Shown one piece after another: positions 39,251 through 46,789 of a stretch of 64,000 nt of DNA. Position numbers and translations under genes: made by a program. Numbering within the stretch: the first letter of the stretch is position 1; every line of letters starts with the position of its first letter. Under the pieces are notes generated by a model. The model was not told where the DNA came from and did no database searches. It worked only from the letters and a program-made list of their open reading frames with translations. This DNA is from a virus (lineage: Duplodnaviria > Caudoviricetes): positions 1 through 64,000 of IMG/VR virus record IMGVR_UViG_3300017780_003084, one strand, 5' to 3'.

Positions 39251-39481
39251 ATGGAATTAATTATTGGTGGAAAATACAATTGGAAGCATCAACCTGAACG
39301 TTTAGTTTACTTAGGTCGTAACTGGAGCGGCAATGGTTATTGGCATCAGTTTGCTTTGGTAGATAAACCAGAGATAATATGGTGTGAAGTAGTGACAGAT
39401 GATTTACGTATGTTCGAAGAAACTATTAAGCCTAATCTTACACGTAACCAAGCTAAAAAACTGAGAAGGAAATCAAAATGA
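39251..39481 (+). CDS. Hypothetical protein
   Basis: Strong RBS; first gene after the promoter. Confidence 0.75.
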   Translation: MELIIGGKYNWKHQPERLVYLGRNWSGNGYWHQFALVDKPEIIWCEVVTDDLRMFEETIKPNLTRNQAKKLRRKSK

Positions 39482-40146
39482 AACTATTATACACAATACT
39501 CTTAACACTTTCCCTCTCAGCTTGTGGAGGAGGGAATTACGAAGAAGAATGCCCTGAGAAATTGCAATACACAACAGCTGTGTCAGCTCCTCCAGCAGCT
39601 CCATTGAAAATTGTCACAATAGGTGACTCTGAGACAGCAGGAGCTGTAAGCACTCCAACAGGATTTGTAAACATTCCAGAGGCTTCCTATCCTGCTCGTT
39701 TACAAGGATTGTTAGGCAGCAAAGCTGTTGTAACCAACTTAGGAGCTAACAGTGAGAACCTAGTTGAAGTTTGGGGAAATCAGTTCTTTGAGGCTGTTAA
39801 ATTGCAGCCTGATATCCTAATTGTCTCTACAACATTAAATGATGCTGGTGATAGTTTGGACATGGAACTGATACGTGTTATTTACAGCCTAATGCACATA
39901 TACTACCTACCTAATACTCGTATCATTGTATTGACACCGCTGAAGGCACATGTTAGTATCTCACCTACTGTGCTTCAAGGTTATACAAACAATCTCTACA
40001 GCATAAATGTGCCTAATGTAGAATTGTTCGATGTAGGTGCTTATGACACACCAGATTGGTATTGTGGACACGAGGACTTCCATCCTTGTGAATATGGGTA
40101 TAGAGAGATGGCACGTTATGTAGCACAATATTTAAACATTAATTAA
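39478..40146 (+). CDS. SGNH/GDSL hydrolase lipoprotein
   Basis: Lipobox LSAC at residue 16; blocks IGDSET, NLGANSE, TLND, DFHP. Confidence 0.85.
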   Translation: MKLLYTILLTLSLSACGGGNYEEECPEKLQYTTAVSAPPAAPLKIVTIGDSETAGAVSTPTGFVNIPEASYPARLQGLLGSKAVVTNLGANSENLVEVWGNQFFEAVKLQPDILIVSTTLNDAGDSLDMELIRVIYSLMHIYYLPNTRIIVLTPLKAHVSISPTVLQGYTNNLYSINVPNVELFDVGAYDTPDWYCGHEDFHPCEYGYREMARYVAQYLNIN

Positions 40147-40157
40147 AGGAGAATAGA

Positions 40158-40694
40158 ATGACAAAAGTATTTAAAGCAGGTGATAAAGTGATTCGTACAG
40201 AATCATTTAATGTAGGAGGTGATTTTGGATTTATGCAAAAAGGTAGAGAGTATGTTGTGAAATCAATGCCCTCACAATTGTTATTAGAAGTAGAAGGTTG
40301 TGGAATGCGCTATGACATTAGATGTTTTGAACTTGTACAGCCAGCATTCAAAGCCATGAAGTTTAGAGTGTATTCTCCAGAGCAGTCTAAAGAGATTCAG
40401 GAAGCTTTGTTTTCTATGGGATATGCTTGGGCTGCTAAAAACCAGCAAGTGATATATCTAGGTTCAAAGTGGTTAACTTCTTGGGATGATGGAAGTTTAG
40501 GTGTAGATGAACATGCATTCAATCTTAACACAGGTGAAGAACATACACTCAAGACTACAAAATCTTACGAGTTCACTCCTGTTACTCATGCAGTTATTGA
40601 AGAAACCACTGAAGAAACCATTGAGCTAATGGGGCAGAAGTATTCTAAGAAAGAATTGGAAAATGCTTTGAGAGGGTTGAAGCCAATTGAATAG
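40158..40694 (+). CDS. Hypothetical protein
   Basis: RBS AAAGGAGAA; 178 aa. Confidence 0.7.
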   Translation: MTKVFKAGDKVIRTESFNVGGDFGFMQKGREYVVKSMPSQLLLEVEGCGMRYDIRCFELVQPAFKAMKFRVYSPEQSKEIQEALFSMGYAWAAKNQQVIYLGSKWLTSWDDGSLGVDEHAFNLNTGEEHTLKTTKSYEFTPVTHAVIEETTEETIELMGQKYSKKELENALRGLKPIE

Positions 40695-40840
40695 GAATTT
40701 TCAATTATTTTGAGATTCGTTGAACTTTTTCAAAGTCATTTGACCTAGGAAAATACGAATTGTCTTGGAAAATGTAATTTGAATAACACAAATGTGTAGG
40801 ATATTGCGCTTTATAGCATAAATGCATCATAATGTGCTAA

Positions 40841-41537
40841 ATGTTACACATTTGCATCCAATGTATAGGAGGAAATATGGAGAAGATGTATTACAAAGAT
40901 AGGGAGATTTTGCTAGTGGAGTGTGAAGAAGGTGTTTCACTGTGTAATGGCTGCGTGCTGGAGGATGAAAATCACTACACTAAAGCTATTAGCCCACAAC
41001 AAAGTGTTAATGTATGCTGTCCTAAGTATACAGGGAAGTTTTATATATTTAAATTTAAAGGAGAAGAATTATGAAAGTTGTACGTAAAAAAGTTGAACCA
41101 GTGTTTATCCCAATCACCATCACATTAGAAACTAAGGCAGAGTATTACAGCTTGTTAGCTACTCTCGGCAGCAGTCATTTCAAGGGAGAGTTGCAAGAGC
41201 TTGATAACATGGGTATTACTGTTACTCCTGAGTATGAAAGCCCTTCTGATAATTTGCATGTAATGCTGCAAAACTTATTCAACGAAATACGAGGGGAAAT
41301 AATATGACTATTAAAGTGACACAAGAAGAAGCTAAGTTTTGTCCAGTGACAATCGTTATCGATGATGGGCGTACAGCTAATTTATTGAAGCACTGTATTG
41401 GTATTTGTCTAAATACCTTTGATGCCTCAGATGTTAAAGGTATTGTATGCACAATCGAGACTCAACAAGATTATGATGAAAGCAGAAATGAATTGAAGTC
41501 ATTAAAACTTGGGTTAGAAGACATCTGTAAACTATAA
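40841..41537 (+). CDS. Three small hypothetical proteins (~40878-41074, 41071-41307, 41304-41537)
   Basis: Preceded by a TTGCGC-18-CATAAT promoter (40804-40833); the last two share an F.P.TI motif. Confidence 0.65.
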
Positions 41538-41542
41538 ACAAC

Positions 41543-41580
41543 AAGCCCTGTCATTCCTTTCGGAAGCAGGGCTTTCTCTT
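41543..41580 (+). terminator. Intrinsic terminator
   Basis: AAGCCCTG..TTCC.TTTC.GGAA..CAGGGCTTT followed by TCTCTT. Confidence 0.8.
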
Positions 41581-41599
41581 GTGTGCTATATGACTTTCT

Positions 41600-42060
41600 A
41601 AAATAATTTCAAATAAAAATATTTATAAAAAATTTTAAGGCCAACCTTCGCAGTATAATAATCATTCTCCCTCCCCATGAATTCCTCGTTTTCAACCAGC
41701 TTTGTCAAGGATGCTTTACATCAACATATAGCTATATAACTATTTACGCATAGATGCAAATACGTATATAAGCATGTAAAGCACGTTTGACTTTTCTTGT
41801 AATTGCGCTGGCAAGCTTAGAACGATCACAGAATGCCGTGTATGCTTGCGAGGACGTGCTAGAATCGTTTTAAAACACTAGGTAGGATACTTACTAACCT
41901 AACGCATTTAAACAGCTCAAAGAGGCTTAAAACACGTATTAGACCATAACGCGCAATATCGGATTAATAGCGCAATTCCAAGGAAGGCGAAACGAGGCAT
42001 AAGCTAGCTTCTGAATAAGATAATAAGCTTATGAGTGCAATCAAGAAACCGATTGCGAAG
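41600..42060. other. Non-coding region with an A/T tract, a C-rich patch and TTTAAAAC/AATCGTTTT motifs; candidate genome-end boundary
   Basis: No plausible ORF; motifs are echoed at 47450-47790. Confidence 0.5.
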
Positions 42061-42075
42061 GGAAATACTTTGATG

Positions 42076-42115
42076 CTGTAACAGGCTAAAGCTTTCTAGT
42101 TTTAGTCCGTTACAG
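42076..42115. terminator. Long hairpin closing the leftward early transcript
   Basis: CTGTAAC.GGCTAAA...TTTAGTC.GTTACAG. Confidence 0.65.
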
Positions 42116-42121
42116 AATTAT

Positions 42122-42277
42122 TTATTCAATTGCTGAAAAGATAGATTGGACTGTATCAACTCGCACCAATTCACCAAATCCGTCATCAACAAAGAAAATT
42201 GCAGCTTTAGATGTAGAGTAAATTCCACATTTAAGTCTCGTGTATCTTGTTGTTTTATTCCAAGAATGTAAAAACAT
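42122..42277 (-). CDS. 51-aa leftward early protein (not in the ORF track)
   Basis: RBS AAGGA, own promoter and downstream hairpin; MFLHSWNKTTRYTRLKCGIYSTSKAAIFFVDDGFGELVRVDTVQSIFSAIE. Confidence 0.75.
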   Translation of the reverse strand: MFLHSWNKTTRYTRLKCGIYSTSKAAIFFVDDGFGELVRVDTVQSIFSAIE

Positions 42278-42315
42278 AATGTTTCCTTAAAGTAATTAAG
42301 ATAATACCGCAAACA

Positions 42316-42346
42316 AATCATCTCATGTTTTCTTAAATACTGTCAA
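42316..42346 (-). promoter_or_regulatory. Early-class promoter
   Basis: TTGACA-18-GATGAT within CATGAGATGATT. Confidence 0.7.
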
Positions 42347-42410
42347 TCGAATTTTAAGCAACGCATAAAACAACAGTATAAAACTATTTTCATTTATTAT
42401 TAAAAATCGC

Positions 42411-42441
42411 TTGCACAAAATAATAATTTCATGAGATGATT
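42411..42441 (+). promoter_or_regulatory. Early-class promoter
   Basis: TTGCAC-18-GATGAT within CATGAGATGATT. Confidence 0.7.
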
Positions 42442-42444
42442 CTT

Positions 42445-42710
42445 CCACTGCAGCGAATAACTAAGGGCATAACGCAAGTTTGTAAGTCCACACAATAGTT
42501 GTTGTGATTTGCGAGAGGTTGAAAACCTCGGGGAAAACTTCGAGGGTGCCATTAATCCCTTACATAATGGACAGAGAATTGGCGGGGATTCTCAAGTAGT
42601 TTTAAATAGCACTAAACAAGGTTTTACGAAACTTTGGACAGAGTGATAAAATAGATGCAGCATGTGGGGAACTGGTAAAATCACGTTAAAATCCTATCTA
42701 TTTTATTATG
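42445..42710 (+). ncRNA. Candidate structured RNA / long leader, family unknown
   Basis: No ORF between the promoter and the RBS at 42741; several stems including a perfect 11-bp helix (42646-42656 with 42696-42706) and a possible pseudoknot at 42542-42570. Confidence 0.5.
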
Positions 42711-42751
42711 ATGTTGTGTGCTAGAATGTTTAAATCAATTAAGGAAATATT

Positions 42752-42805
42752 ATGTTCGAGACTGATATGCTGGAAAATATGCAAGCTATGAAAGGCACAA
42801 AATGA
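42752..42805 (+). CDS. 17-aa micropeptide MFETDMLENMQAMKGTK
   Basis: RBS AAGGA; paralogue at 46311. Confidence 0.7.
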   Translation: MFETDMLENMQAMKGTK

Positions 42806-43533
42806 GTGATTTTTCAACACACCAAGCTAGTTATATTTTGTTTGTTGTATTTTTTGTTTTGGTTCCTCTCTTAAATTTTATTGAAAGTTATTTATGAATA
42901 TTAGGCATAAAACAATGCGGTTATGGAATTCTGGATTTTCTGAGTTAGAAATTATCAATCGTGGTGGATGTCAAACTATTTATAATGAATTATTTGCTAC
43001 TTATGGATGTAAATCTATCCCGTTACATGTATTACATGGGCTAAAAAGGACTGAAAGTTATAGTTGCAATTTTCACAATCCACCAGAAGCTTTGCAATTA
43101 CGTGAAATTATTTCAAAACATAATGAAAGTATTTAATATGAAAAATCGTAGATTATCAGGTAGGGAATTTTGCAGTCAATTGGATAGTTTATTCAGTGTA
43201 GCTAAATCGTGCAAATACGATGCGCAAGTAGTGCATGAAAGATTTGCAAGCATGTTGCAAGAATTAAAAACAAGAACTCCTAGCGGGAAACCACGATATG
43301 CATATTACTTAAGGCAATATGTCATTGGGTATCATGATGCTTTACACTCTCACATGTGGCAGAATGAGCTAGAATTCTGTTATGTTTATAACGGTGAATT
43401 GTATTCGACACATAAAGTCAGTAATCATAAAAATGCAGAATTGTTATTTTTGAATAGAGAAAATTCTAGTGCATTCATGGATAGTTTAGAACGTGGACAC
43501 TACTGGAAAAATTCAAACAAACTATTTGCTTAA
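42802..43533 (+). CDS. Early ORFs (42802-42897 TM peptide, 42894-43136, 43123-43533)
   Basis: ATGA-type coupling. Confidence 0.6.
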
Positions 43534-43541
43534 AAATTAAA

Positions 43542-43571
43542 TTGACAGAGTAGAATAAACTCTGAGATAAT
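43542..43571 (+). promoter_or_regulatory. Early-class promoter
   Basis: TTGACA-18-GATAAT within CTGAGATAATT. Confidence 0.7.
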
Positions 43572-43617
43572 TCGTTCTGTCTTAAACGACACAATTTTAA
43601 ACACATTGAAAGAAATT

Positions 43618-44079
43618 ATGAAAAATATCACTTACATGCAAACAGAATCAGGACGCATTTTCACAACTTCTAGCCCACAGTATCACAAGCAAGATAAAAA
43701 GCTTACTAAAAAAGAAGGTGAACAGCTTTACAAAGAACAATGCAGAAATGAATTATTATCACTGGTAAAACCTAATGATAAAGTATATGTTAATGTGGTT
43801 TCTGTGTCATCATCTGGCATGTCTAGAAAAATGAGTTTTCACATTATCAAAGACAATGAACTGCGTAGTATTAGTTATCTTGTTTCTGTTGTAGCTGGGT
43901 ATAATACCGATAATAATTACAATCTTAAGGTGTCTGGGTGTGGTATGGACATGGGATTTAGTGTCGTTTATAATCTTGGGCGTTGCTTATGGCGTGATGG
44001 CACACCTGAATCACATGGCACTAGAAACGGTGTCGCTGACTTTGATGGCGGGTATGCTTTGAAATATTCTTACATTTAA
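43618..44079 (+). CDS. Conserved phage early hypothetical protein
   Basis: VS.SGMSR...GCGMDMGFSVVYNL...GGYAL motif set, which recurs in phage early regions. Confidence 0.75.
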   Translation: MKNITYMQTESGRIFTTSSPQYHKQDKKLTKKEGEQLYKEQCRNELLSLVKPNDKVYVNVVSVSSSGMSRKMSFHIIKDNELRSISYLVSVVAGYNTDNNYNLKVSGCGMDMGFSVVYNLGRCLWRDGTPESHGTRNGVADFDGGYALKYSYI

Positions 44080-44087
44080 GGTTATTT

Positions 44088-45384
44088 ATGTCTTACACTA
44101 AATTAAAATCGCTTAATATAAATTGGGTAGATAAAATTGATGGCTTAACAGTTGCTAATGCTGTCGAATATCTTAAAACCCTAGATCAAGGCATGCGCTT
44201 GTACTGTTATCTTGATGGCGATACACATGGCTGCGATTTAGTATCTAGACTTATCTATGATGTGCCTATGACTAATAAAGAAATTCTGGTGCAATTGCGA
44301 GAAAAGCACGATAGGAATATAAAGCTTTATCAAGATGCAATTGCCAGATATAAGGCTAGAAACGAACAACCGGAACGAATCTTGCAATGTGAAAAGCTTA
44401 TTGCTGAACATCAAAACAAGCTTGATGAATTGATTTTAAAATACTTGAAAGACTAACAACATGATACAATTTACAATCAATTACAATCCCAGTGCCCTAG
44501 CAAAGTGGAAAGCTGTAGACAGCTCCGGCACAGTCTGGAAAAGCCACATTTACAAGCGTGGTATTATTGACTGGATTAGTGCGCAATGTGGCACGGCTCC
44601 GACGAAGCAATTTTAATTTAAGAGAGAATAAAATGTTATTAGCAAAATTACAAATAGTTTTTAGTGAATTAGATCATTATGAAAATGGCTGTACAGGTCA
44701 ACATTTCACAGGTCATTGGGATTTATCTTTTAATGCAGAGAATGAGCAAGTATTGATTGAAAAGATGACAGCCTATTTTCTATGCACTAGTGATTATTTC
44801 CAGTTCAATGCTTGTGATGAAGTAGGACGTACAGATATTCAACTGCAGACGGTAAATAAGTTTGACGAATTTCCGATGAATAAAGGAAATTTAGAACGCT
44901 TTAAAGATGGCAAGATAGAAGCATACCTGACTACTTTTAGTTTTCAAGTTTACGAACAAAAACCATTTAATCTAATAACTAAGGACAGCTAACATGCAAA
45001 CAAATTACAACACAATCAAAACAATGCGCAAGCCAAGCAAGCTGGAAACAAACGAGAAGCAAGTACAACAGGCTTACAAGGGGAAAACGTGGAAGCGTGA
45101 CACAAGCAAGCGCAATTATGAGTTTAACGGGTTACAAGGGGTTTAAAATGAGTTTATTAAACAAGGTATACTGCAAGCGGTTTGCGCATTACTACAATCT
45201 AAAGCTAGATGTCTGTAAAGTATCTAAGACAGTTACAATATCAAACAATGATTTCGTAGACGTGTTTAATAACTTCGACGAATTGCGGGATTTTTTCGAT
45301 AAGCAACGCAATTTAATCACGCTTGGTAAAATTCCAAAGTGGTCTAAATACTGCGAAAATGAATTTAAAAGTATTTTTAAATAA
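44088..45384 (+). CDS. Early ORFs (44088-44456, 44461-44616, 44633-44992, 44994-45146, 45148-45384)
   Basis: Manual translation gives back-to-back ORFs; two are missing from the track. Confidence 0.65.
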
Positions 45385-45386
45385 GC

Positions 45387-45417
45387 TTGACACAATCTTT
45401 TAATTCATGAGATGATT
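45387..45417 (+). promoter_or_regulatory. Early-class promoter
   Basis: TTGACA-18-GATGAT within CATGAGATGATT. Confidence 0.75.
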
Positions 45418-45458
45418 CTTTTAACGCAAATTTGCGCATAATTAAATAGGGGTTAAAA

Positions 45459-46309
45459 ATGGAATTATTCTTTGCTGTCTTTCTTGTCACAACATTTTCT
45501 TGTATCATCATCTCTGCGTTATTTGGAATCGTTCTTAAAAGTAGTAATAAACGGAGTAATTACGCATTAGACGATGCAGTAGAAATGTTACAATTGTTTA
45601 GCCCATTTATTGGCTTGTTAGTTGGATTAATTGCAGCTATTTGTAAATAATTTGCACAGAATCGAAAGCCTAGATTTTACACTAGGCTTCTTTCAAACAT
45701 TACTAGGTATATTATGTCCTACGCTATTCCATATAAAGGTTTGACACGTTTTTTCAACTCCGAGCAAGATGCTGTCACATTTTGTAAGCTTGCTATGATT
45801 AAAACGGATGTTATCATTAAGGCGCAGTTATCATGAAATTCTGTCCAATATTGAAACAGCAGTTTGATTATGCTTTTAACTCAATTGCTAACTTAGATTA
45901 CTCTAGGTGTCTGGGAACAATACGTATTCGAGACCTCGAAAAGAGTGAAATATTCCTACATGGACAAGATGCTCATGATTTGTTAGATTTAGCTTATGAT
46001 ATGTCAGAAAATCGTTTCATAGAGGAAACATTCGAAGACTGTCTCATTCTTTGCTTATATTCACACGTTGACTTGTTAGGGAATTAAATTATGTTTGCTT
46101 TTTATAACTCATCACTAGGTATGATTAAAATTTACAATCATGGCACAGACTGGCAACTAGTTTTCAAAGATGGTGGAGAACGTTGGTTTTCTATTTGGGA
46201 ACGTTGGTTTTCTATTTGGAAACATTCAATAATGGACAGCTTAGAACGTGCAATTTATTCTGTTGATGATAGTTTTGTCCCTGATTTACTAGTTATTTGC
46301 GAGGTTTAA
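45459..46309 (+). CDS. Early ORFs (45459-45650 membrane; ~45714-45836; 45833-46087; 46091-46309)
   Basis: RBS present; a hairpin at 45664-45694 separates the first ORF from the rest. Confidence 0.6.
46178..46219 (+). repeat. Perfect 21-bp tandem duplication (ERWFSIW x2)
   Basis: GAACGTTGGTTTTCTATTTGG occurs twice, in frame. Confidence 0.95.
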
Positions 46310-46310
46310 A

Positions 46311-46361
46311 ATGTTTGAATTTGATATGCTGGCAAACATGGAAGAAATGAAGGGAAAATGA
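46311..46361 (+). CDS. 16-aa micropeptide MFEFDMLANMEEMKGK
   Basis: RBS GAGG; paralogue of 42752-42805. Confidence 0.7.
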   Translation: MFEFDMLANMEEMKGK

Positions 46362-46734
46362 TGAAAACACCTATAATTAACCATAAAGAATTATGCAGAT
46401 TACTCGCACCCATCGACTGGGCTTATACAGGCTTTGATGACGGATTCTATTGTTTCCAAACTGGGAACTATTCGACAGGCTTCAAAGAAATGAAGTGTAA
46501 GCAGGAAGACTTAAATAAAGCTAACTTAACTTTGATGGTTAAGCTTAATATGACGAGGGTGTGATTATGACAAACGAACGACTTTACACAATCCACTACA
46601 AGACAAAGGATAGAGTAGTAGATGCAGGATTTGAGCCTATGACATTCAAGGAGGCTTTAATTGTGCGTCTTAAGTGCATTAGCTGGGGAATGCATCGAAA
46701 GCATAGGAGTGTAGAGATAAGGCGAATAAGCTAA
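46358..46734 (+). CDS. Last two early ORFs (46358-46564, 46567-46734)
   Basis: Coupled; followed by a terminator. Confidence 0.65.
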
Positions 46735-46759: not shown

Positions 46760-46789
46760 AAAGCCTATCGAGTGATAGGCTTTTGTTTT
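46760..46789 (+). terminator. Intrinsic terminator ending the early operon
   Basis: AAAGCCTATC-GAGT-GATAGGCTTTTGTTTT. Confidence 0.9.

Follow-up and report, generated by a model that had tools for sequence, protein, structure and literature searches.

A conserved 13-codon core in very short open reading frames from a clade of uncultured freshwater phages

Two very short open reading frames (ORFs), referred to below as mini-ORFs, lie about 3.5 kb apart in a 64-kb stretch of viral DNA, positions 1 to 64,000 of the IMG/VR record IMGVR_UViG_3300017780_003084. Further in this study the whole 64,000-nucleotide stretch is called the window. It comes from a complete virus record of 90,329 bp, found in a freshwater metagenome, and belongs to an uncultured phage; among public sequencing runs, no RNA run was found to contain the sequence. 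The mini-ORFs of the window (copy 1 and copy 2, Table 1) are members of a small family of seven copies sharing a core of 13 codons, and the conservation of this core is of the coding type. We hold with moderate confidence that the mini-ORFs encode a translated micro-protein that would act through a putatively helical N-terminal core and would probably do so in trans, on a protein of the host or of the phage.

The family was collected by pattern scans and marker-gene searches. In total it contains seven copies in six records, namely the two copies of the window and one copy in each of the relatives L003, L083, L085, L092 and L094; two copies in one genome are seen only in the record of the window. 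The core shared by all seven copies has the form MFExDM(L/M)xN(M/I)xxM. In five free-standing copies it is followed by a short basic tail of the type K-G/A-x-K, and the ORF ends within 16–24 codons; in L003 and L083 the core heads a longer ORF. As far as it can be searched for, the family appears to be limited to one clade of uncultured freshwater phages with genomes of approximately 85–90 kb. No similar units were found elsewhere in IMG/VR or in the JGI metagenomes, GTDB genomes and GenBank phages beyond two chance matches: the pattern match in L086 has a stop codon within the motif, and that in L087 lies inside a long Ruminococcus ORF. Nucleotide searches of the GenBank phages with the region retrieved neither near nor distant relatives, and searches of the same set with short DNA queries and a 24-amino-acid (aa) protein query yielded chance-level matches or none. 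The mini-ORF and its fused forms matched nothing in Rfam, Pfam, PHROGs, the PDB sequences or among transfer RNAs. Nothing in the window reached the Rfam gathering score, the only match near copy 1 being at the chance level (E=0.39). The 60-aa fused form of L003, when used as a query, retrieved only two relatives; both match its C-terminal part, and neither has the core. Conserved small ORFs are known in phages and bacteria; the present family is new and unusually short.

The initial annotation of the window had given the coordinates of both copies, a ribosome-binding site before each of them and an overlap of each with the following gene's start, and all these features are read directly in the sequence. 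A degenerate pattern built from the residues shared by the two copies matches only these two positions, whether the window or the entire record of 90,329 bp is scanned, while the number of matches expected from shuffled sequences is zero. Copy 2 starts 1 nucleotide (nt) past the stop codon of a 72-aa gene (46091–46309), and its own stop codon overlaps the ATG at 46358 and abuts the ATG at 46361 of the following 68/67-aa ORF. The same arrangement is seen in all five free-standing copies: the stop codon overlaps the following start codon or adjoins it (ATGA, TAATG or 8-nt overlaps), and the Shine-Dalgarno (SD) sequence for the next gene is contained in the last codons, 4–8 nt before its ATG. In four of the five copies the K-G codons of the tail (AAGG or AAGGG) stand 6–8 nt before the next ATG, and L085 has a separate GGGAGG. 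Since the K-G codons supply the SD sequence of the next gene, the tail is probably also under constraint as RNA. In each of five contexts a different gene follows, and these five genes are apparently unrelated, which fits an autonomous unit. The 72-aa gene preceding copy 2 carries a perfect tandem duplication of 2 x 21 bp (46178–46219) that repeats seven residues; its homologue in L092 has a single unit.

Several lines of evidence support the view that the peptide is what has been conserved. The 39-nt core is 74–92% identical between copies, while the 30 nt upstream of the ATG are unrelated (27–53% identity) in all pairs save the orthologous pair formed by copy 1 and the L003 copy. The boundary of homology thus falls exactly at the ATG, and it does so in at least four unrelated sequence contexts. 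Despite the unrelated upstream sequences, an SD-like site is present 4–7 nt before the ATG in six of the seven copies; the SD sequence is weakest in L092, where the mini-ORF starts 2 nt after the stop codon of the upstream gene. Variable columns are concentrated at the third codon position (10 of 12 columns, compared to 7 of 24 at the first two positions; Fisher P=0.003), and the ratio of nonsynonymous to synonymous differences (pN/pS) ranges from 0.06 to 0.70, being below 1 in all 21 pairs. Neither stop codons nor frameshifts occur within the core in any of the seven copies. The five synonymous codon differences reported earlier between the window copies are all present. The suggestion of the initial annotation that selection acts on the peptide and not on the DNA is supported by the five further homologous copies, the ATG boundaries, the third-position variation, the retention described below and the absence of frameshifts from the core; the tests based on substitution counts are marginal. 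An antisense gene was considered and rejected: one antisense frame has the same third-position periodicity, but no start codon is found upstream of the core in this frame in four of the seven copies.

The strongest independent argument is retention. All six records carrying the operon keep the core in at least one copy. Among 20 neighbouring genes of the window, 16 are lacking in one or more of the five relatives, 15 are present in at most three of them, and only four (at 41071, 42802, 44461 and 44994) can be detected in all five. The gene at 42802 (42802–42897) is a hydrophobic micro-ORF of 31 aa, whose homologues in the five relatives have 27–32 aa and which is itself below the usual gene-calling cut-offs.

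The mini-ORFs occupy two sites, site 1, flanked by a conserved leader and the hydrophobic micro-ORF, and site 2 late in the operon. The contents of site 1 are listed in Table 1. At site 2 the unit occurs in the window, L092, L094 and L085, and in L083 as a fused form. The L085 copy (92%) is nearer to copy 1 than copy 2 is (77%); for this reason it is more likely that the window copies were brought together by recombination than that they arose by a recent local duplication, judging from these similarities.

In both fused forms the junction directly follows codon 12–13 and the conserved residues are intact. Since the fusions retain the core alone, the function is placed in the first 12–13 residues. 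In L003 (5391–5573) it is the orthologue of copy 1 that has been fused, so that the core forms an in-frame N-terminal extension of a 49-aa protein. The tail of the L083 fused ORF aligns to the end of the last gene of the operon suggestively, not cleanly, and its origin from that gene is possible. The 49-aa proteins constitute a small family of their own, found alone in L088 (1197–1346) and L092, with a 46-aa relative on the unrelated JGI contig L089.

Within the core, residues M1, F2, E3, D5, M6 and N9 are invariant, and L7, M10 and M13 switch only to methionine or isoleucine. The variable residues 4, 8, 11 and 12 fall within a 100-degree arc of the helical wheel, as would 24 of the 495 possible combinations (P about 0.05). 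A model of the 60-aa fusion, of low confidence (predicted local distance difference test score 52.6), has a helix at residues 2–11. We consider the following scheme as a candidate. Each unit consists of its own SD sequence, an ATG, the 13-codon core and a short basic tail, with a stop codon overlapping or abutting whatever gene follows. Selection would act on the peptide, the functional part being the N-terminal 12–13 residues. The core would probably be a short helix, variable on one face (residues 4, 8, 11 and 12) and conserved elsewhere. The most likely role of such a peptide would be that of a trans-acting ligand of a host or phage protein, expressed from an operon of small genes that lack an assigned function; the trans-acting effector helix proposed in the initial annotation is plausible. 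The tail would have a second task at the RNA level, its K-G codons serving as the SD sequence of the next gene.

A number of observations weigh against this scheme. The initial annotation had assigned the hydrophobic residues to one face of an amphipathic helix; this is not supported, given that the hydrophobic moment (0.03–0.37) is no higher than that of shuffled peptides (P from 0.15 to 0.99). The window pair taken alone differs by 9 nt and 4 residues, and its excess of silent changes is not significant (permutation P=0.06). Substitution counts are weak in general: permutation P for individual pairs ranges from 0.02 to 0.38, and a conservative count yields 7 silent and 15 replacement changes (P from 0.03 to 0.17). 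The sample is small (7 copies) and partly orthologous. Site 1 lacks the mini-ORF unit in L083, L085, L088 and L092, as does site 2 in L003. Finally, the complete genomes of L003 and L083 carry only fused forms devoid of the tail, hence the free peptide is not always made.

The main alternative is that the mini-ORF acts in cis as a translational coupler, that is, as a portable fore-cistron whose translation brings ribosomes to the next start codon and keeps it accessible, or boosts the gene it is fused to, the released peptide having no role of its own. Engineered bicistronic designs have a fore-cistron of about 16 codons, with the SD sequence of the second gene in its last codons and an overlapping stop and start (PMC8601185). 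The mini-ORFs resemble them, and termination-reinitiation coupling in general, in their length of 16–24 codons, in the stop/start overlap or abutment and the embedded SD sequence of all five free-standing copies, and in their portability, as the genes that follow are unrelated, which is what a portable cassette predicts. The start regions are unstructured, and the L003 and L083 fusions are compatible with an N-terminal translation aid. A coupler, however, needs no particular peptide, yet six invariant and three nearly invariant residues have been kept through silent changes. In this operon every gene, as a rule, shows stop/start overlap and an SD sequence within the gene before it, so these features are not special to the mini-ORF. 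Homologues of the downstream genes carry their own SD sequences in relatives where the mini-ORF is absent, and the fused ORF of L083, with no further gene ahead of the terminator, has nothing to couple to. Coupling as the sole function leaves the residue-level conservation unexplained and seems rather unlikely to us, although the layout matches it.

Two other explanations appear less plausible still. The mini-ORFs could be what is left of a decayed small gene: non-functional N-terminal stubs that recombination has carried around a mosaic region. In favour of this, two copies out of seven result from deletion or fusion (L003 clearly, L083 probably), the sites turn over fast, and the substitution statistics are weak. 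Against decay stand the five free-standing copies, which all stop within 16–24 codons and have the K-G/A-x-K tail in common, the persistence of the core in six of six records while most neighbours are not shared, and the concentration of variation at third codon positions; besides, searches of IMG/VR, the JGI metagenomes, the GTDB genomes and the GenBank phages revealed no longer gene with this N-terminus that could be the parent. We consider this explanation improbable. More improbable yet is a regulatory leader peptide, also proposed in the initial annotation, on which the ribosome would pause or arrest at the nascent core or at methionine codons upon a signal, thus tuning the downstream gene. 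Attenuation and arrest leader peptides are represented by ErmCL, TnaC and the his and trp leaders, and macrolide-type leader peptides have a conserved N-terminus and a variable tail. The mini-ORF is similar to them in being short, in standing directly before a gene and in combining a conserved N-terminal part with a tail that varies; it contains 3–4 internal methionine codons, and a long 5' leader is followed by copy 1 as its first ORF. Unlike these leaders, it comes with neither alternative RNA structures nor a run of regulatory codons, and there is no fixed gene that it would regulate. The RNA around the copies has no shared or conserved fold, nor an unusually stable one at any copy (z-scores of +1.06, +0.23, −2.85, +1.99 and −0.26, i.e. 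from +2.0 to −2.9); neither a terminator/anti-terminator pair nor an Rfam match was found there. The linkage to the downstream gene is not constant, with five different genes following the unit, and downstream genes have SD sequences of their own in relatives lacking the mini-ORF. Sensing of methionine codons was dropped, since in relatives methionine is replaced by isoleucine or gained from leucine, which points to a hydrophobic role of these residues and not to a role of the codons.

What distinguishes the mini-ORFs from the engineered fore-cistrons is that the peptide itself is conserved, that the downstream genes have SD sequences of their own in relatives, and that the layout is operon-wide. 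For the preferred reading, a peptide acting in trans, the closest known parallels are phage-encoded micro-proteins directed at host proteins, such as Stp of phage T4, a peptide of 26 residues. As in the case of Stp, the mini-ORF would yield a very short soluble product from among small phage genes, conserved as a peptide and falling below gene-calling cut-offs. It is not known to resemble such proteins in sequence, is shorter (16–24 residues) and also occurs as an N-terminal fusion module; early expression is assumed. A precursor of Arbitrium-type signalling was rejected, given that the N-terminus does not resemble a signal peptide and that no receptor domain recognisable by Pfam was found among the operon genes scanned.

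The mini-ORFs are located within a block of small genes on the plus strand (39251–46734) that ends at a terminator-like hairpin. Nearly all genes of this block lack a Pfam or PHROG family. The minus strand carries replication genes, including those for a primase-helicase, a ligase, a ribonucleotide reductase and ThyX. The closest cultured phages are those of Pseudomonas syringae with genomes of approximately 98 kb (52% identity of the primase-helicase). A GDSL-type lipase/acylhydrolase gene (Pfam PF13472; 222 aa, 39478–40146) with a lipoprotein-like N-terminus is situated inside the block; apart from the window it occurs only in the L083/L093 genome (73% identity).

Upstream of copy 1, the initial annotation had noted a structured RNA with copy 1 as the first ORF after it. 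The second part of this statement stands, as no ORF lies between the promoter-like site and copy 1; the fold of the leader, approximately 300 nt without ORFs (42447–42751), is only moderately better than that of shuffled sequences (z=−1.9), and the leader has no Rfam match. A block of 17 nt in it (42620–42636) is identical in the window, L003, L083, L085 and L088. The leader of the window is longer than those of the relatives by about 150 nt (roughly 42470–42610). The sequence TGcTAGAAT (42719–42727), some 25 nt ahead of the copy 1 ATG, has the form of an extended −10-like element and could be a second promoter giving copy 1 a short 5' untranslated region; its part TAGAATG is kept in the window, L003, L083, L085 and L088. 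Before the promoter-like site, the segment of about 0.9 kb that begins after a gene end at 41537 (41538–42410) has no credible ORF, and a long gap is seen in the relatives too.

Table 1. Mini-ORF copies, adjacent signals and the contents of site 1. Window positions are numbered from the first nucleotide of the window, and positions in relatives refer to the respective records.
Record	Feature	Position	Strand	Remark
Window	Promoter-like site TTGCAC-18-GATGAT	42411..42440	+	Consensus match only; would start the copy 1 transcript; equivalents in relatives
Window	SD sequence AAGGA of copy 1	42741..42745	+	6 nt before ATG; relatives have a different but functional-looking SD sequence at the same distance
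Window	Mini-ORF copy 1	42752..42805	+	17 codons and stop; conserved 13-codon core, K-G-T-K tail
Window	AAGG in the tail of copy 1	42792..42795	+	6 nt before next ATG, doubles as SD sequence of the next gene; likewise in L092 and L094
Window	Hydrophobic 31-aa micro-ORF	42802..42897	+	Single transmembrane-like segment; ATG overlapped by the copy 1 stop as ATGA
Window	SD sequence GAGG of copy 2	46301..46304	+	6 nt before ATG
Window	Mini-ORF copy 2	46311..46361	+	16 codons and stop; same-site copy in L092
Window	AAGGGA in the tail of copy 2	46350..46355	+	SD sequence for the downstream gene (ATG 46358 or 46361)
Window	68/67-aa gene coupled to copy 2	46358..46564	+	Homologues in L003 and L092 without a mini-ORF directly before
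Window	Terminator-like hairpin with T run	46760..46783	+	Closes the small-gene operon
L003	Mini-ORF copy	5391		Core heads a 60-aa ORF
L083	Mini-ORF copy	2608		Core at the head of a 36-aa ORF; no further gene before the terminator
L085	Mini-ORF copy	13312		24 aa, free-standing
L092	Mini-ORF copy	9719		17 aa, free-standing
L094	Mini-ORF copy	4391		19 aa, free-standing
Window	Site 1			Mini-ORF
L088, L092	Site 1			49-aa gene
L003	Site 1			Core fused in frame to a 49-aa gene of the L088/L092 type
L085	Site 1			Different 49-aa gene
L083	Site 1			Nothing

A bolder version of the trans-acting reading, which we offer as doubtful, would place the 13-residue methionine-rich core among the smallest conserved phage effectors: a helix contacting a host protein with nearly its whole surface and working either free or as an N-terminal tag, with the two window copies, which differ only on the variable face, addressing two variants of the target.

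The reach of these observations is that of a family known from one clade of uncultured freshwater phages. Within this clade, a unit of 16–24 codons is among the few elements that all relatives keep in a fast-shuffling operon, and genes this short are invisible to standard annotation. With the mini-ORF, moreover, nature provides a fore-cistron in which the peptide itself is conserved. As a well-defined and easily synthesised molecule, the mini-ORF peptide is a candidate for finding a new contact between phage and host.

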